Shown piece after piece: positions 7,108 to 64,000 of a stretch of DNA of 64,000 bases. The DNA comes from an uncultured Candidatus Saccharibacteria bacterium (GTDB taxonomy: Bacteria; Patescibacteriota; Doudnabacteria; UBA920): NCBI GenBank assembly GCA_964631145.1, contig CAZVXT010000001.1, forward strand, positions 553,797 through 617,796, given 5' to 3'. The first letter of the stretch is position 1. Each line of letters begins with the position of its first letter. The position numbers were made by a program, and so were the translations under genes. The notes under the pieces were generated by a model, which ran no database searches, was not told the DNA's origin, and saw nothing but the letters and a program-made list of their open reading frames with translations.

Positions 7108-9669
7108 TTATTTTTGTTTAGCAAAGCCCTTAAAATAGCTATCTACTAATTCTGAATCTCGCTTAATCCAAGCCAAATTTATTCTAATCTTTTCGATAGT
7201 CTGAGCAACTGATTGCTTTTCTGTTTTTAAATATGGTTTAGCGTAATTTTGAAACTCCTTTAGTAGCTCATTAGTGCTAAAATCTCTCGCTCCTTCTATG
7301 ATATAGCCCATTAACTTGCCACCCATAAACATTTCTCTTAGTTGTTTATCTCTTGATTTTATTTCTTGCCACATCAAATGTGAAGTTTTTGAAATTAACA
7401 TCCCATGGATAATAGCAATTGGCAGGTCTTGAGGTCTAACTTGTCCAGAAAAAATAAACTCCAGTACTTGCTTGTATTCTTTTTCTCCTTTAGTTCTTAG
7501 CATTGCCGCTACAAGTTGATTTCGTTCTTCTTGAAGAGTAGCTTTTTTGTATTTATCAAATAGCGTGCTTAAAACTTTATTGTCACTGTAACTTGCTACA
7601 GCTAAAATTGCAGTTTTATGATTCCTATCAATACTTTTATTTTTTTCATACAAACTAAATTGTTTTTTTGCATATTGTTCGACTTCTTTCAGCCCAGCCA
7701 AGCCCGCATTACTAATAGCCAAAGATCTTAAAAGCTTTTGACTATCTGTATCATTCTTTTGGGAATTATATCCAAGCCTTGTTAAGACATTTGCGTACAA
7801 TTGTTTTTTCCAATTTAGAAAACTTTCGTAATATTTCTTATTTGAGGTAAAGAATACTCTTTCAATTTGTGCTAAATTCCCTGATATTTCTGCCCATACA
7901 ATATAACTATCTTCTGTCGCAGATATTTGGTTTACCACTTCCAAATATACGTCAGTTTGCACATATCCAGAAATCGCTAATAAGTACAAATTTCTAATTA
8001 AGGCTAATCTATCGTTAGAACCAATCTGCTTATTTTGCATCGCGCTTACTAATAAAGCAAGATATTTAATTGGGTAGTTTGTTATATAAAAACTTTGTTC
8101 ATTTGGATTGAGCTTAATAAATTTATAATTATTCTCGATATGCAAATGTGATATAGCCTTATTTGCTAAAATCATCCCACTCTGTTTATCATGATCAATT
8201 AACGCCTGCACCGGCACTTGCCATAAAGTTTTATCTTCATTCTTTTGAAGTGTAAAACGCTTTTGTGATAACTCTAACCCCTTTTTAGCATCAGTTATAG
8301 TAATAACTGGGTAACCTTTATCCTGTGTCCAAGCTTTTACTAAAGCAGAAATATTCTTATTAGACACCTTATCAAAAGCAGCCCACAAATCTTCCGAACT
8401 CGTATTTCCATAAGAATGCTTTTTTAAATAAATACGAAGTGCGTCCCGAAAATTATCAGCTCCGATATATCCCGAAATCATGCGCAAAATACTCGCTCCT
8501 TTACTATAAGAAATACCGTCAAATATTTCGCTAATCTCATGCGAGTGCTTAACTTCCACTTCTATTGGATGAGTCGAGAGCAAAGCATCTTCCTTAAGTG
8601 CATAAGACTGTTCTGATAATACAAACTTTGTCCAGAATCTCCACTCTGGAAATAACTCATCTACAACCAAATACGCCATATAGCAGGCGAAGCTTTCATT
8701 TAGCCACAAATGCGTCCACCACTTCATTGTGACCAAATTTCCAAACCACTGATGAACTAATTCGTGAGCAATAACTTCTGCAACTCGCTGTCTATTAATC
8801 AAAGATGTGTGCTTTTCATCTACCAATAAAGCAGTCTCTCTAAAAGTAATAGCGCCCCAATTTTCCATAGCGCCAGCTGCAAAATCTGGAATTGCTAATA
8901 AATCTAAGGTTTTAAGAGGATACTTAATACCAAAATAATTTTCTAAAAACTCTAAGCTTCTCTTTGCCGTCTCTAAACTAAAGGCAGCCAAATTGCTTTT
9001 GCCAGGTGTTGTATGAACTTTAATGACTGTGCCATTTTTAGTCTTTGTTTTAATATGATCTAACTCTCCAATTACGTATGCTAATAAATAGCTCGACATT
9101 TTTGGCGTTGATTCAAAATGCACAATCTTTTTATCCTTGCCTAATTTTTCAATTTTCTTTTCTTGAGTATTAGAAACAACTTGTAAATTTTTTGGAACGA
9201 CAATAGACAAATCGAAAATGGCTTTATGACTAGGCTCATCAAAACATGGAAAAGCCCGTCTTGCATCTGTGGCTTCAAATTGAGTGGTAGCCAAATGCTT
9301 TTCTTTTTTGTCATGAGTATACTTACTTCGATAAAACCCGTGGAGTTTATCATTAATACTTCCTGTAAACTCTATACATAAATTACCTTTTCCAAGTAAG
9401 CTAGTCGCAAATGTCAAAATAACTGTTTCAGAATACTTGTCATACGAAACATCTTTGCAATCTATTTGTTTTTTACCAAACTTAAAAACAGCCGAATTGA
9501 TTTCTATGTCGATACAATGCAAAACTATTTCTTTTGTTTTCTTTTTTATATCTATGTTAATAGCTTCAGATCCACTAAATGTAAAATTTTCTAAATCTGG
9601 GACAATTTGAAGAGTATATCTAATTGGCACCACATGATCTGGCAGCCGGTGATTGTTGGATTGTTTCAT
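7108..9669 (-). CDS. pepN: Aminopeptidase N (M1 family zinc metallopeptidase)
   Basis: GAMEN exopeptidase motif (AAGAMENWG) and HELVHQWFG…E zinc-binding HEXXH-E motif. Confidence 0.85.
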   Translation of the reverse strand: MKQSNNHRLPDHVVPIRYTLQIVPDLENFTFSGSEAINIDIKKKTKEIVLHCIDIEINSAVFKFGKKQIDCKDVSYDKYSETVILTFATSLLGKGNLCIEFTGSINDKLHGFYRSKYTHDKKEKHLATTQFEATDARRAFPCFDEPSHKAIFDLSIVVPKNLQVVSNTQEKKIEKLGKDKKIVHFESTPKMSSYLLAYVIGELDHIKTKTKNGTVIKVHTTPGKSNLAAFSLETAKRSLEFLENYFGIKYPLKTLDLLAIPDFAAGAMENWGAITFRETALLVDEKHTSLINRQRVAEVIAHELVHQWFGNLVTMKWWTHLWLNESFACYMAYLVVDELFPEWRFWTKFVLSEQSYALKEDALLSTHPIEVEVKHSHEISEIFDGISYSKGASILRMISGYIGADNFRDALRIYLKKHSYGNTSSEDLWAAFDKVSNKNISALVKAWTQDKGYPVITITDAKKGLELSQKRFTLQKNEDKTLWQVPVQALIDHDKQSGMILANKAISHLHIENNYKFIKLNPNEQSFYITNYPIKYLALLVSAMQNKQIGSNDRLALIRNLYLLAISGYVQTDVYLEVVNQISATEDSYIVWAEISGNLAQIERVFFTSNKKYYESFLNWKKQLYANVLTRLGYNSQKNDTDSQKLLRSLAISNAGLAGLKEVEQYAKKQFSLYEKNKSIDRNHKTAILAVASYSDNKVLSTLFDKYKKATLQEERNQLVAAMLRTKGEKEYKQVLEFIFSGQVRPQDLPIAIIHGMLISKTSHLMWQEIKSRDKQLREMFMGGKLMGYIIEGARDFSTNELLKEFQNYAKPYLKTEKQSVAQTIEKIRINLAWIKRDSELVDSYFKGFAKQK

Positions 9670-58914: not shown

Positions 58915-58965
58915 ATGTTCGCACCAGCCCTTGCTGATTAAGCTTTTTCTTATTTTTTTCATAAG

Positions 58966-59035
58966 GCACTAACAGGAATTGAACCTGTTATTCTAGATTA
59001 CTAGTCTAGCATATGTCCATTTGTACTTTAGCGCC
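58966..59035 (-). tRNA. tRNA-like element with AGU anticodon (possible tRNA-Thr(AGU) or pseudo-tRNA)
   Basis: Acceptor GGCGCTA/TAGTGCC, 3-bp D-stem, perfect anticodon stem CTAGA/TCTAG with loop CUAGUAA, T-arm ACAGG-TTCAATT-CCTGT; no CCA encoded. Confidence 0.35.
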
Positions 59036-59546: not shown

Positions 59547-59586
59547 AATTTTATTTTCCTCTTTTTTATTTTTTATTTTAGACCAA

Positions 59587-59742
59587 TGGAGATGGCGGGA
59601 ATCGAACCCGCATCCAAGAATTTTAATACCTATTTATGCAGATTCAACTAAGTTTGCAGTCCTTAGTAACGCAAGTCCTTCTCGTGGTTGGTTATCCTTA
59701 CTTTCTACCCGGCTAAAATCCCTGTCGAAGCCTGTCACCCCC
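59587..59742 (-). ncRNA. ssrA: tmRNA-like gene (ssrA), unusually short (~156 nt), CCA not encoded
   Basis: 5' GGGGGUGACAGGCUUCGACAGGGAUUU matches the tmRNA 5' consensus; 3' GCGGGUUCGAUUCCCGCCAUCUCCA forms T-arm plus acceptor; G3-U70 Ala identity pair present; candidate tag ORF GCA AAC UUA GUU GAA UCU GCA UAA. Confidence 0.5.
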
Positions 59743-59789
59743 TTACCAATTTCCGAAATTTCTTTATAAAGCAATTCCGAAAAAAAGTG

Positions 59790-59822
59790 CGAAGCTAAAC
59801 AGCTTCGCAAGATATTAACCGT
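59790..59822 (-). terminator. Intrinsic terminator downstream of HicB-like gene
   Basis: On minus strand gcgaagc-uguuua-gcuucgc followed by U7. Confidence 0.6.
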
Positions 59823-59826
59823 GATG

Positions 59827-60525
59827 TTAATACCTGATTCTAAACTCTGCCCTTAAACCTAAGATTTGATTGAGATAATCTAAAGGTTCTACATCTACTG
59901 GCTTATCATAGACCAGCACAAACTGATCACTACGAACCATGGATGCTGGCTTGTTTTTTACCACAGCCATCATCCCTTTTTGCCTCTGACGACAAACACT
60001 ACAATCCCCATAACATCCATAAACTACAGTCATCACCATGTCATCAAGCACAGCAATCTGTCTAGAATTTTCCCATCCTGGGACAGTGATTAACCCAATC
60101 ACATTCCAGTCTTTTGAGTATGCCGCTGTTTGCAAGGAAATTTGCTTATCCCAAGCCTTCCTTTCAAGTTTTAGATTATACATTTCCCGTTTAAAATTAA
60201 TATTACGGACCAAAGATTGCAATGCCAGTTCTTCACTTCTACCAATTCCTCTACTTTGTTCAAACTCCAAACACTTTGCTAAATAAATTTTTCCCGAAGG
60301 CAAATCGTGAGTATTATAAGTAACAGTTAATTCTTCTGCACTATAAAGTCTATCTGGCATATCAGCAAAATATTCAGCATCTATAAATTCTTCAACTTTA
60401 TTTTGTAAATCTTTTTGAGCGTCTTCAATATTTTTACCTAATCCAAAAACGGTTGGAAACTGTTTGCATGTAGAGATAAATCCTTCTGAGGTTTTGGTGT
60501 TTCTTACGGTTCAAATTGTTTTCAT
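59827..60525 (-). pseudogene. HicB-like N-terminal domain protein interrupted by an in-frame TGA at codon 5 (ORF track reports only 59827..60360)
   Basis: GGAGG RBS 5 nt before ATG 60523-60525; reading MKTI*TVRNTKTSEGFISTCKQFPTVFGLGKNIEDAQKDLQNKVEEFIDAEYFAD continues in frame into MPDRLY…; the 55 codons between are stop-free and resemble a HicB/UPF0150 fold. Confidence 0.45.
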
Positions 60526-60581
60526 AATGCCTCCAAAAATTTGTAATTTTTATTTTTCCAAACAAACGAATATTCACTTGC
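60519..60581 (-). repeat. Promoter/5'-leader repeat copy A (shared with 61873..61940)
   Basis: 35-nt identical core ttttatttttccaaacaaacgaatattcacttgct plus shared ttcataat…cctcca SD region. Confidence 0.6.
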
Positions 60582-60620
60582 TGGGAAAAATTCCCAAAGT
60601 CACGTGCTTTGGGTTAATGA

Positions 60621-60962
60621 CTAATCATCATAGTCATAGTTTAAGTAAGTGTAATTTTCATCGCAATCCGAGACAGGAAAACCAAAATCTCTTAACTTTT
60701 GCTCATCCATTATTGGATAATCAAAAAGTTCAGCAATTGGAAATATCCTTGGGGTTACTACGTCCATCTCTTGCACATGTAATAACTCTTGATGAGAAGT
60801 GCTGGTGCAATAACAACCACACTTTTCTGTATCATCCCAAGTTAGATTATCAGCAACAAAGCTAACAATCGACTTTCTAATAGATTCCAGACTTTCATCT
60901 GGAGCTTCGACAGTATGATAGTTATTTTGACCATACTCCTTTAATACAATCATTAGTTTCAT
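60621..60962 (-). CDS. Hypothetical protein
   Basis: AGGAGGG RBS before ATG at 60962 (MKLMIVLKEYGQ…); preferred over overlapping + ORF. Confidence 0.4.
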   Translation of the reverse strand: MKLMIVLKEYGQNNYHTVEAPDESLESIRKSIVSFVADNLTWDDTEKCGCYCTSTSHQELLHVQEMDVVTPRIFPIAELFDYPIMDEQKLRDFGFPVSDCDENYTYLNYDYDD

Positions 60963-61122
60963 AGCCCTCCTATATAACTTTTTTCTGTTACTTGCTAATT
61001 CGCCGGTCAGCATATAAATTAGTCAAGTGTCCTAAAAGTTTTTTCCCTCTTTTTTAATCGACGTAAACACATCGACTAAAAAAGAGGTGCGAAGTTTTTT
61101 AGGCTTCGCATAAGTTTTCAAG

Positions 61123-61332
61123 TTAATAGAATTTCTTATCTTTAAAAGTGTTTATACTGCCGCCCCAATCGTCCTTTAACCATCCAATATACATACCGAG
61201 CTTAATAGCATCTGCTGTAGATATTGAATCAGGGACTTGGATATGATAACCACCTTTATTAAACGAAATATCTCCTTTAACTTTTAATGTTAAATCTACG
61301 AGTCGGGATAATGCCCAGTCAGGATTAAACAT
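61123..61332 (-). CDS. Hypothetical small protein (69 aa)
   Basis: GGAGGT RBS before MFNPDWALSRL…; intrinsic terminator downstream. Confidence 0.4.
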   Translation of the reverse strand: MFNPDWALSRLVDLTLKVKGDISFNKGGYHIQVPDSISTADAIKLGMYIGWLKDDWGGSINTFKDKKFY

Positions 61333-61469
61333 AATACCTCCACTACTTTCTTCTGTCTCTCGCTTACACACCAAAAGGCATTATGCAAGTCGAGTGTCCG
61401 GAAAGAACCTAATTACAAGTATAATTACTTGGACCATAGTTTAGTTTTGGTATTATGAACACCTTTTGT

Positions 61470-61661
61470 TTACTTATTGATTACTAATATAAACAACTCT
61501 CGTAAACAATATACTGCTACACCAACCATTAAAATCATAAATAAAGTTAGCATAATCATTTGTCCAGTATCGTGATTTGCTGCGGCTTCTTTGGAAGCTG
61601 TAGCTACAGCCACACACCCAACAGTTGAAATAATACACCCCAATATATAAAAAATCTTCAT
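61470..61661 (-). CDS. Small hydrophobic membrane peptide (63 aa)
   Basis: GAGGAGG RBS before MKIFYILGCIISTVGCVAVA…; two TM segments. Confidence 0.4.
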   Translation of the reverse strand: MKIFYILGCIISTVGCVAVATASKEAAANHDTGQMIMLTLFMILMVGVAVYCLRELFILVINK

Positions 61662-61746
61662 AAATCCTCCTCGATATAATCCCAATTTTTAAAAGACTAA
61701 ACAGTTAATCTTCTAAAAAAGAGGTGCAATATTAATTGCACAGGTG

Positions 61747-61878
61747 TTATAACACACGAATAAATCGTGCACACTCAGCGGCAATTGCCGGACCATAAGT
61801 GTTATATAAATGAGCAAAGCTCAATGAACCTACTACAATAAGCATGGCTCCCAATAATACTTCTACAATAAATTTCAT
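61747..61878 (-). CDS. Small hydrophobic peptide (43 aa) driven by repeat copy B
   Basis: GGAGG RBS before MKFIVEVLLGAMLIVVGSLSFAHLYNTYGPAIAAECARFIRVL; stem-loop terminator follows. Confidence 0.4.
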   Translation of the reverse strand: MKFIVEVLLGAMLIVVGSLSFAHLYNTYGPAIAAECARFIRVL

Positions 61879-61940
61879 AATTTCCTCCAGATTTTTTATT
61901 TAAAATTTTATTTTTCCAAACAAACGAATATTCACTTGCT
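61873..61940 (-). repeat. Promoter/5'-leader repeat copy B
   Basis: Same 35-nt core as 60547..60581 plus SD region. Confidence 0.6.
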
Positions 61941-62232
61941 TAGAAAAATGGCAAATCAAGTTTGCCGAGGTTTTTTGTCCCATTTACAATAGCGTGGAAC
62001 AAGTCTTTGGATAGTTCGACCATGCGCGCGGTAGCGAACAGTCCTAGTATCACATTTCGGACAACCGCAGTGTTCGTCTTCCAACTTGGCTGCGGCAACT
62101 TTAGGTGCGACATAAATGGTTATTTTTATGTTCATCATTTAAAGTATATTGCGGTCTCGCCTTGGTTTATAAACTATCGGCTAAATAATTTTTCTTTCCC
62201 CAAGATCCCCGCACTGTTTTTTTGAAACTTGC

Positions 62233-62478
62233 TTAGGCAGCAGCAACGGTTACTTTCTTCGCAGGTTTTCGTTTGAACTCTTGTCGCTTTTTATGAAGCT
62301 TCATAAGAGAATCATAACGATCACCCGCTCGATACCGCCGCGCGTCGGCATGGCTAACGATATTAGCTGCAGTTGCCGCGTTTAATTGAGCATCGATGCC
62401 AGCAAACTTCAATTTTGGTCTATGTTGAACCATATAAGCTAATTCAACTTCAACCAATTTTTCGATTTTGGTTATCAT
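62233..62478 (-). CDS. Hypothetical basic protein (81 aa)
   Basis: AGGAGG RBS; locally elevated G+C; 5'-UTR hairpin ccacc/ggtgg precedes the RBS. Confidence 0.4.
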   Translation of the reverse strand: MITKIEKLVEVELAYMVQHRPKLKFAGIDAQLNAATAANIVSHADARRYRAGDRYDSLMKLHKKRQEFKRKPAKKVTVAAA

Positions 62479-63059
62479 TATCTTTTCCTCCTATATAACC
62501 CACCAGCCACGGTGGTTTTATTTATTTTTATTTTCTTTTTCGAGATGACGAATTTACACTCATCCCCTCAAAAAAGGAGCCCAACTTAAAGTTGAGCATA
62601 AGTATGTGTTAGATGCTTTCCACAGCACCCTGCTGTAATTGGAGTTACAGCTTTCGCTTCCACTGCAGAGGAACCGCATTTTGTCTGACCTTCTCAGAAG
62701 ATGTCTTGCATAGACAATCCCAGCATCAATTTTTATCAAAATGATGACTTACACAAAATAGATTTTGACTAGACCTAGGAGTATATATATAGTTCATTAC
62801 CTTAGGGCAATAAAAGGCATTCTAGTATGCCACCTGACTTCCGAAGAACGAAGTCATTGGTCTAAGATATATACTTAATCAGGGTTATTTTGCAAAATTG
62901 CAAAAGTGACACGCAACCCTCCTAAATATTTTTAGCGTTCTATTTTAGATCGCCTATTTTAATTTTCAAATTTTGAAAACTAGAATAGACGGATGATTTA
63001 AGTTTGAAGTTTAAATCACCTCAATAAAATTTGTCTTGCGACATAAATTACCTCCTTTG

Positions 63060-63760
63060 ATAAAAATTTCCTATACGCTAGGATTACTTAGCGCCGGCGC
63101 GACCCAAGCCGGTAATCTGCTGCCCCTCCCATGGGGGTCGATATGGTCTTTATCGACATAGTCTTTTGGGTCTTGGGTAGACCGTTAGGTTTGCAGCCCG
63201 CTTTCGCGAGGAGCTTGTCCCCTAACCGGGCAAGCTCTTGGCGGCTTAAGCCGCTCAAGTCTGTCATATTTTTCAATTTTTTCTGTTCAGCTAAGTTTGT
63301 AACTCAACTGAACAGTTTGGGTGCTGAGCTGGTGGCTCATTGTTAACACCGCAGTCTGAAAATTTTCTTGTCACCTATTGTAACGAACTTTTTACAAAGC
63401 TTTGTCCAATAGGATCTCGCCATCACCGTTCTTGCGCGAGACTTTACGGATTTACGGTTGACCCAGATCTTGGGTTGTCAGTTACTCGTTTTCAGACGAA
63501 CCGGCAAAAATAAAGATTACTTTATCCCCGCCGGCCCGTCTGCAAAGTTGTAAGCTGGTGCTTAAACTAGCAAGCTAGTCTAAACATCTCTACAGTCGGG
63601 CGGACATATTAAAAAGCTGTAATCTTTGAATTAGATAACAACCTTTACAAGACCAACTCGCTGTGTGGCAAGTATTTATATGATTATTAGCCCCGTAATA
63701 GAGGCACTCCTGCCTACCAGCGATGTTCCTTTAATTTCTTAATGGAAACTAGCCGTAAAA
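63060..63760. other. ORF-free, G+C-enriched, stem-loop-dense region (candidate large structured RNA of unknown class)
   Basis: No ORF above 71 aa in any frame over ~1.5 kb (62480-64000); many perfect 5-8 bp hairpins such as CTGTTCAG…CTGAACAG, GAGCTTG…CAAGCTC, GCGGCttaaGCCGC, TCTCGC…GCGAGA. Confidence 0.25.
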
Positions 63761-64000
63761 GATTGTTATTTACTTTTCAAAATTTCAGCTTACAAAAGTA
63801 TTATACACGAATAATTATTTTTGTCAAGAAGTTTTAACAAAATTTTGTATATTTTTCTTTAAACATTGTTTTTATTAAGTATTTTGTAATAAATTATTGA
63901 TATTTTATATAAACATAATAAGATAAATCATGTAATTATTTGTTTTGGATAAAAATAAAAAAGCATCAATTGCTTTTGTAGAGTAAATCTACTTTGCAGT

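Follow-up and report, generated by a model that had tools for sequence, protein, structure and literature searches.

A duplicated non-coding element, possibly an intercistronic leader hairpin, in a strain-variable island of small orphan genes upstream of tmRNA in a Patescibacteria genome

We analysed a 64,000-nt chromosome segment (contig CAZVXT010000001.1, hereafter the window), ~10% of a genome of the Patescibacteria (candidate phyla radiation, CPR), in which a 35-nt sequence occurs twice without a mismatch within an island of small co-oriented genes. The island lies between a conserved non-coding region and the gene for transfer-messenger RNA (tmRNA), and each copy of the repeat is found between an intrinsic terminator and a GGAGG-ATG start on the minus strand. 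We propose, with a probability of about 0.45, that the repeat is a duplicated leader or insulator hairpin that adjoins a terminator between cistrons, in a strain-variable island of orphan small genes upstream of tmRNA; the element looks more like an RNA leader or insulator than like a promoter. The two copies are the youngest, still identical pair of a local family of intergenic modules, each composed of a terminator (T1) followed by a hairpin (H2), that separate the small orphan genes p81, p60, p43, p63-p69, p113 and an interrupted HicB-like open reading frame (ORF).

The exact 35-nt core is located at 60548–60582 and 61906–61940, which establishes the duplication described in the original prediction, except that copy 1 had been placed 1 nt away (60547–60581). 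Alignment with flanking sequence extended the homology to 47 nt at 94% identity (60545–60591 versus 61903–61949; spacing 1358 bp), upstream of which the two flanks are unrelated, and dinucleotide shuffles gave no match to the 35-mer at three or fewer mismatches. As had been predicted, both copies precede a minus-strand ATG with a GGAGG (GGAGG 60534–60530 and ATG 60525 for copy 1; GGAGG 61888–61884 and ATG 61878 for copy 2). The accompanying claim of a matching Shine-Dalgarno (SD) region held for the 47 nt only; closer to the SD and the ATG, nothing but the generic GGAGGnATTATGAAA is shared. Between the two copies lies a 1.3-kb block (1.36 kb) with the genes p43, p63, p69 and p113. The window is matched at 100% identity by Logan contigs from SRR12712853 and SRR12712864, which, being built with k = 31, break precisely at the 35-nt repeat, indicating that the duplication is present in those assemblies, although they are not independent of the window.

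Searches for further copies found none in the window, either at three or fewer mismatches or with a covariance model, and none in 25 related loci; a 24-nt core had no match in 185,579 species-representative genomes, in JGI metagenomes or in IMG/VR. Near-identical copies number two in 64 kb plus 5.6 kb, both within the same island. The two identical copies and three diverged hairpins of like design all fall within 2.1 kb of the 64-kb window. The repeats, terminators and hairpins are as follows.

62579–62597 and 62535–62576, minus strand: a T1 and an H2-type hairpin upstream of p81.
61950–61966, minus strand: T1 after p60, with a U tract (from 61949 down) that doubles as the 5′ arm of H2 copy 2.
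61903–61949, minus strand: repeat copy 2, 47 nt (core 61906–61940), upstream of p43.
61724–61741, minus strand: T1 after p43, with the tail GCACCTCTTTTTT that is common to the T1 after p69.
61686–61719, minus strand: H2-type hairpin that follows the p43 terminator, upstream of the p63 SD, with the U tract paired to a downstream A tract.
61088–61110, minus strand: T1 after p69, with the stem GCGAAG/CTTCGC, the same as in the terminator after the HicB-like ORF.
61046–61087, minus strand: H2-type hairpin of 19 bp upstream of p113, the third-best covariance-model match.
60593–60613, minus strand: T1 after p113, with a U tract that doubles as the 5′ arm of H2 copy 1.
60545–60591, minus strand: repeat copy 1, 47 nt (core 60548–60582), upstream of the interrupted HicB-like frame.
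59788–59809, minus strand: terminator after the HicB-like ORF.

H2, an imperfect palindrome of 40 nt, makes up most of the repeat, the remainder being about 7 nt. Folding placed H2 at 60552–60591 in copy 1 and at 61910–61949 in copy 2, with an 18-bp stem that includes four G.U pairs, an AUAU loop and the centre GAATATTC. The ends of the palindrome are perfect over 7 bp (ATTTTTC/GAAAAAT): the 5′ arm, which starts AUUUUUC, is the U tract of the terminator, and the 3′ arm ends in GAAAAAU. The module thus begins at the first base past the T1 stem, and it stops 17–21 nt short of a strong SD.

Terminator-like hairpins are over-represented in the region, with 9 detected versus 2.1 ± 1.2 in shuffled sequences. 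They follow p60, p43, p69, p113 and the HicB-like ORF, and none was found downstream of p63; of the proposal that p63 and p69 each have an SD and a terminator of their own, the SDs were verified and the p63 terminator was not. Since no terminator separates them, p63 and p69 look co-transcribed. Short motifs recur among the modules. The tail shared by two of the terminators, already remarked upon in the original prediction, is the 13-mer GCACCTCTTTTTT, which has just two occurrences in the 64 kb, at 61090 and 61727; a second 13-mer, GTTATATAGGAGG, also has two occurrences in the 64 kb, both in the island; and the stem GCGAAG/CTTCGCAC, a short string that occurs elsewhere in the window, is common to the p69 and HicB-like ORF terminators.

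When a covariance model built from the two copies was run unfiltered over the whole window, only four sites were recovered at E < 0.08, namely the two copies, 61038–61090 (E = 0.0026) upstream of p113 and 62525–62581 (E = 0.07) upstream of p81. The pairing of the U tract was also assessed at all 45 terminator-like sites of the window by folding the 48 nt past each stem. The four most stable structures in which the U tract is paired (−25.9, −20.2, −15.4 and −13.5 kcal/mol) are all in the island, and the HicB-like terminator ranks sixth among the 45 sites. Across a comparison set of 80 related loci (L10 neighbourhoods, numbered with the prefix L), 3 of 591 terminator-like sites qualified, two of these being in the syntenic relative L009 between a TrmB-like gene and tmRNA. 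There, positions 7251–7440 contain a terminator, a hairpin of U tract and A tract, a GGAGG and an ORF of ~30–35 aa with one transmembrane (TM) segment, directly followed by tmRNA, so that the architecture recurs in a relative though no sequence is conserved.

Folding of H2 depends on the strand. For the five hairpins, the energies of the sense (minus) versus the plus RNA were −20.2/−9.0, −15.5/−4.4, −15.8/−4.1, −26.2/−17.7 and −13.8/−7.3 kcal/mol, and every non-Watson-Crick position in the five is a G.U pair on the sense strand. A natural allele of copy 2 was found among four European Nucleotide Archive (ENA) contigs (L084, L085, L087 and L088) of a 95.5–97.5% identical strain. The L087 allele (628–668 versus window 61910–61949) carries 7 changes in 41 nt in a setting where the flanks are ~4% diverged, and it still folds into a 17-bp hairpin: one pair is compensated (A-U to U.G), another is improved, and two are broken. 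Contig L088, otherwise the same strain as L087 from a second sample, retains the window allele.

The original prediction had described the repeat as a promoter/leader cassette. Possible promoters were scanned for as sigma-70 TTGACA/TATAAT pairs with N16–18, scored out of 12. The promoters of this genome are near-consensus TTGACA-N17-TATAAT, genuine ones scoring 10–12/12; six sites with N16–17 are perfect at 12/12 (23784(+), 34608(+), 37691(−), 38032(−), 57386(−) and 63827(−)), two of which immediately precede the RNase P RNA and the L10 leader, and sites at 11/12 are numerous. Promoters so close to the Escherichia coli sigma-70 consensus make prediction unusually informative here. The best matches of the repeat reach 9/12 in copy 2 (TTGCCA-N16-AATATT) and 8/12 in copy 1 (TTGGGA-N17-AATATT), and the −35 hexamers of both lie outside the repeat, in terminator stems that are not homologous to each other. 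No promoter of at least 10/12 was found on the minus strand from 59.8 to 62.9 kb, the nearest good ones upstream being at 62969 (10/12) and 63827 (12/12). The promoter half of the earlier description is therefore not borne out, whereas its leader half agrees with a duplicated non-coding element in the leader position of two SD-led minus-strand genes. Taken together, the lack of a good promoter in the island and the sense-strand bias make a leader hairpin that is transcribed by read-through more likely than a promoter.

Such a leader would work as follows. The island would be transcribed mainly by read-through from upstream promoters, with T1 attenuating transcription; in the read-through RNA, H2 would form a stem-loop beside T1 that acts as leader or insulator and keeps the A/U-rich spacer and the SD accessible. 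H2 could then tag or shield the 5′ end of the cistron that follows, in the manner of an intercistronic processing or stability element. The exact identity over 35 nt would stem from a recent local duplication or gene conversion, an event that would have left p43-p63-p69-p113 bracketed by direct repeats. Known intercistronic mRNA hairpins include the stabilising REP (repetitive extragenic palindromic)/BIME (bacterial interspersed mosaic element) sequences, the RNase III sites of phage T7 and the stabilising stem-loops of 5′ leaders. Like these, H2 is a 35–40-nt imperfect palindrome, predicted to be transcribed, that lies next to both the 3′ end of a cistron and the 5′ leader of the one after it, folds in a sense-strand-specific way and recurs between consecutive genes. 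It differs from them in that its stem is made of the U tract of the preceding terminator and a downstream A tract.

Several considerations weigh against this explanation. The G.U asymmetry is partly a matter of ascertainment, as folding of the sense strand is what revealed two of the five hairpins, and partly of strand composition, as G exceeds C on the minus strand; in the hairpins found independently of strand, G.U pairs fall on the sense strand at 6 of 6 positions (roughly p = 0.05). Support from covariation is weak, with three sequences, one compensated pair and three unpaired cells, and shuffles do not discriminate. Read-through, processing and a stabilising role are all steps that we infer. 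If T1 is efficient, the downstream genes need promoters of their own, which argues for a promoter inside the module. Finally, copy number was counted over about 10% of the genome.

The last but one of these points leads to the strongest rival, in which the repeat is a duplicated promoter/operator: a dimeric repressor would bind the palindrome centred on GAATATTC as its operator, which would overlap a weak sigma-70 promoter, and p43 and the HicB-like gene would be co-regulated. The element does lie between terminator and SD, where a promoter would be needed if T1 is efficient; its 35-nt identity is exact, it is palindromic with a −10-like AATATT at the dyad, and copy 2 reaches 9/12. However, nothing in the island attains the 10–12/12 of genuine promoters, copy 1 stops at 8/12, and the −35 hexamers belong to the unrelated terminator stems and not to the repeat. 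In addition, the L087 allele alters both half-sites and changes AATATT to AATTATT while keeping the hairpin, G.U pairs on the sense strand account for all imperfect positions, a DNA-binding regulator was not identified, and the HicB-like frame is broken at codon 5. We consider this explanation unlikely, albeit the best placed of the alternatives.

Alternatively, the repeats could be recombination boundaries, either att-like junctions left by a Campbell-type insertion or by cassette shuffling of the 1.36-kb four-gene block, or, with T1 and H2 together, integron-like cassette boundaries with no integrase nearby. The direct repeats bracket exactly four genes, the ORFs are co-oriented, promoterless and split by imperfect palindromes, and short motifs are common to the intergenic modules. 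Moreover, the region from the TrmB-like gene to tmRNA is a variable hotspot: it is non-homologous between this genome and L009, so that the island is lineage-specific. Contigs of the variant strain end at the module boundaries 61905, 61661 and 60596. All four of these contigs in fact end at or near such boundaries (61905, 61913, 61661 and 60596), which could reflect strain-level rearrangement or merely low coverage, and the latter would suffice to explain the ends. Domain searches for an integrase, transposase, HUH enzyme or recombinase were negative in the island, 5.6 kb upstream and 10 kb downstream. A duplication of the tmRNA 3′ end as an att site was looked for and not found, and a dif/Xer site was rejected for want of a GC-skew switch and of any likeness by eye. 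DNA searches of INPHARED phages, PLSDB plasmids and IMG/VR gave no plasmid or phage similarity.

Integron arrays and CALIN (clusters of attC sites lacking integron-integrases) consist of promoterless cassettes separated by attC sites of 57–141 nt with R″ RYYYAAC and R′ GTTRRRY cores. The island resembles them in its small, co-oriented ORFs without consensus promoters of their own, in the strand-specific imperfect palindromes between these, in a gene block bracketed by direct repeats and in a locus that varies between relatives. It departs from them in that the H2 elements are shorter (34–42 nt), show no R″/R′ cores (RYYYAAC/GTTRRRY) by inspection, and are each preceded by a separate canonical terminator, with no integrase from 5.6 kb upstream to 10 kb downstream. 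We regard recombination boundaries as improbable as a full explanation, although they are compatible with a leader hairpin and the two are not mutually exclusive; the shared short motifs and the 47-nt direct repeat around four genes are consistent with local duplication, with gene conversion or with modules shuffled in a cassette-like manner. A bolder version, to which we give somewhat less credence again, is that the T1+H2 modules are the boundaries of an undescribed small-gene cassette array beside tmRNA in this Patescibacteria clade. Its mini-genes, many of them for membrane peptides, would be gained, lost and shuffled at strand-specific hairpins, or expressed by dedicated read-through and RNA processing, and the identical 35-nt pair would mark the latest cassette event.

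The repeat might also be a selfish or neutral small palindrome, similar to REP elements or to miniature inverted-repeat transposable elements (MITEs), that landed by two terminators and has no role for the neighbouring genes. It is a 40-nt, 18-bp intergenic hairpin, as a REP-like element should be, presumed to be transcribed; the palindrome has perfect 7-bp ends, the boundaries of homology are discrete, and a closely related strain carries a diverged allele. Yet the 64 kb plus 5.6 kb examined hold two copies only, both in one island, a low and local copy number for a REP/BIME-like sequence; both copies and the three diverged relatives of the design have the same placement between terminator and SD; and no transposase or REP-associated tyrosine transposase (RAYT)-type enzyme was seen in the parts inspected. 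We give this explanation little credence.

The genes between the modules, and those at the downstream edge of the island, are listed below.

62233–62478, minus strand: p81, with the SD GGAGG, an upstream member of the co-oriented array.
61956–62138, minus strand: p60, an unannotated upstream member of the array with no SD.
61747–61878, minus strand: p43, a 43-aa orphan with one hydrophobic segment (GGAGG 61884–61888).
61470–61661, minus strand: p63, 63 aa with two hydrophobic segments (GGAGG 61666–61670).
61123–61332, minus strand: p69, a soluble orphan of 69 aa (GGAGG 61337–61341).
60621–60962, minus strand: p113, an acidic (pI 4.2), soluble orphan of 113 aa (GGAGG 60966–60970).
59827–60525, minus strand: the HicB-like frame, with ATG at 60525 and an in-frame TGA at 60511–60513.
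59584–59742, minus strand: a short tmRNA gene, the downstream edge of the variable island.

The ORFs p43, p63 and p69 exist where they had been predicted, and p43 and p63 are hydrophobic by Kyte-Doolittle analysis, with one and two 17-residue windows above 1.6, respectively. Six consecutive GGAGG motifs on the minus strand (60534, 60970, 61341, 61670, 61888 and 62491) each lie 3–9 nt before an ATG; those of p43, p63 and p69 are 4–6 nt ahead of it. In the window, a GGAGG precedes 7 of 47 long ORFs and 5 of 150 small first-ATG ORFs, three of the latter being p43, p63 and p69. The NCBI record calls p43, p63, p69 and p113 as genes and leaves p60 unannotated.

Substitutions were counted against the four variant-strain contigs. 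Compared with L084 (97.5% identical), p63 shows 13 nt changes and three aa changes, all conservative (I6M, T21A and I58L), a pattern that clearly points to purifying selection. The same is suggested for p81 (10 nt and 4 aa changes, plus a start changed from ATG to GTG) and for p60 (4 nt changes and 1 aa change; 3 of the 4 substitutions synonymous). p69 has 3 nt and 2 aa changes, and p113 has 4 of each, so that constraint on p113 may be relaxed. Considering their strong SDs, the substitution pattern of p63 and the NCBI gene calls, the small ORFs look real, and we take their products to be genuine orphans of membrane or secreted type. p63 could also be read, by inspection, as a signal peptide (AxA, residues 20–22) with a C-terminal anchor. 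The stretch 62000–62400, with p81 and p60, has 41–45% GC against about 33% for the genome, and p60 is a CxCxxC...C mini-protein that may be a real unannotated gene.

The original prediction had favoured a toxin-type module, in which p43, p63 or both would act as type I toxins, as holins or as bacteriocin/immunity peptides, with the repeat in their control region; of all the explanations considered this is the least probable. No toxin, holin, bacteriocin or defence model was matched. The proteins p43, p63, p69 and p113 had no significant match in Pfam, PHROGs, NCBIfam or PADLOC. In a word-indexed search of 5.8 billion proteins the island proteins matched only themselves or 96–97% variants, an exhaustive search of 1.84 billion representatives likewise lent no support to a toxin, bacteriocin, holin or defence role, and IMG/VR, INPHARED phages, PLSDB plasmids and the 80 related L10 neighbourhoods contained no homologue. 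A sequence search of the PDB was negative, two AlphaFold2 models were of low confidence (pLDDT 47.5 and 57.5) and gave noise in Foldseek, and no paralogy among the island proteins was found.

In type I toxin-antitoxin loci (hok/sok, ldr/rdl, ibs/sib, fst), the toxin is a hydrophobic peptide shorter than 60 aa that has a TM segment and ends in a polar or charged C-terminus, and the loci often have repeated non-coding flanks (Fozo et al. 2010, PMC2887945). p43 resembles such toxins: it is small, hydrophobic (residues ~1–25) and single-TM, is under 60 aa, has its own SD and a C-terminus of mixed charge (ECARFIRVL), and belongs to a tightly packed locus with a repeated non-coding sequence, in which each gene had been credited with its own SD and terminator (p63 lacks a terminator-like hairpin). 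p63 is atypical, with 63 aa, two TM segments and purifying selection as for an ordinary membrane protein. Unlike tandem type I loci (PMC2887945), the repeat is 47 non-coding nt that leave out the peptide ORF, and its two copies precede genes unrelated to each other. For a type I antitoxin RNA, the scan revealed no antisense promoter of genome-typical quality: the plus strand from 59.8 to 62.7 kb holds none of at least 10/12, only 9/12 matches at chance frequency. The T1 hairpin at 61949–61967 could also terminate plus-strand transcripts.

Phage lysis cassettes, with holin and antiholin, and morons also place 1-TM and 2-TM mini-proteins side by side in units flanked by terminators. Here, however, domain searches of the neighbours revealed no endolysin, phage gene or ABC/C39 exporter near the island, no PHROG, phage or IMG/VR match was obtained, and p43 (ECARFIRVL) and p63 (LRELFILVINK) lack the highly charged hydrophilic C-terminal tail of holins. 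A defence-island context was discarded, as the upstream neighbours yield no PADLOC system. The idea that p69 is a bacteriocin with a double-glycine leader (KGG, residues 26–28) was likewise dropped, the leader spacing being unfit and no exporter being present.

Copy 1 had been predicted to drive the HicB-like gene. The ATG that follows it is continued by AAA ACA ATT TGA, i.e. MKTI and a stop at codon 5, and the Logan contig agrees. A recoded TGA was rejected: in-frame TGA is almost never found inside the long ORFs of the window, indicating that TGA is a stop codon in this genome. The next in-frame start is M56 at 60360, giving a standard-code ORF of 177 aa (59827–60360). With W in place of the stop, the N-terminal 62 aa resemble PF21748 (UPF0150-like; E = 0.0019, 18.5 bits), scores for the frame being 15.1–18.5 bits, all below the cutoff of 27.3, and the AlphaFold2 model of the N-terminus has a pLDDT below 50. 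No HicA-like gene is present among the neighbours. We read the frame, most plausibly, as a gene that was inactivated recently or truncated at its N-terminus; the HicB-type character of that N-terminus is weak and unconfirmed. With HicAB type II systems it would share the fold of its N-terminal ~50 aa, at the level of sequence (E = 0.0019); unlike HicB, it has no recognisable DNA-binding C-terminus, but a rare ~90-aa CxxxCxxC domain. Exhaustive HMMER searches of the 1.84 billion representatives returned only the HicB-like protein itself and two stand-alone proteins of 97 aa (P0004 and P0005), which match its C-terminal ~90 aa (59827–60230) with the common signature C..DCS.CR.R. The full pattern of the domain, W.N.R...C..DCS.CR.R...K...VL.YD...L..LG, matched no Pfam family.

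The surrounding window has 33% G+C and encodes RNase P RNA, tRNAs, an L10 leader and tmRNA; its L10 protein is at most 76% identical to those of metagenome-assembled genomes (MAGs) labelled Candidatus Doudnabacteria or Saccharibacteria. The tmRNA gene is short, at 159 nt, and shorter still in L009 (131 nt; 7516–7646). Its Rfam match covers model positions 1–374 with ~300 of them deleted, ARAGORN misses it, and it resembles a minimal form without most pseudoknots, with a possible tag frame ending in ...ANLVESA*. Just past the tmRNA 3′ end, in an orphan region, a tRNA-like gene at 58964–59035 (minus strand; Rfam 48 bits, not called by ARAGORN) has the anticodon loop CUAGUAA, corresponding to AGU (Thr), and non-canonical D-stem pairs; tRNA-Thr(UGU) and tRNA-Thr(GGU) are already encoded at 39–40 kb.

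On the other side of the island, 63330–63830 (minus strand) is a candidate structured non-coding RNA or long leader with a counterpart at L009 3700–4260. A perfect TTGACA-N16-TATAAT (63827–63795) is followed by ~460 nt without a convincing ORF, at roughly 45% GC in a 33% GC genome and with a minimum-free-energy z-score of −5.1. Including the promoter, it is 76% identical to the syntenic stretch of the Doudnabacteria-like MAG, and a long hairpin shows changes that appear compensatory; Rfam gave no match even at E ≤ 1, and neither 83 loci nor JGI metagenomes contained a further copy. Downstream of it lies p62 (MKNMTDLSGLSRQEL...TPMGG...; 63088–63276, minus strand), which has a 43%-identical homologue in another related MAG (L015, 302–487). 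In both genomes the next reading frame is a micro-ORF of 7 or 16 codons with an SD, whereas p62 has none of its own.

The result chiefly corrects the first reading of this locus and documents a strain-variable orphan island upstream of tmRNA. If the T1+H2 modules are functional, they would be a compact way to insulate and express strings of tiny genes in an ultra-small CPR genome, and they would provide a sequence signature for real small membrane-protein genes that are opaque to annotation pipelines and homology searches.

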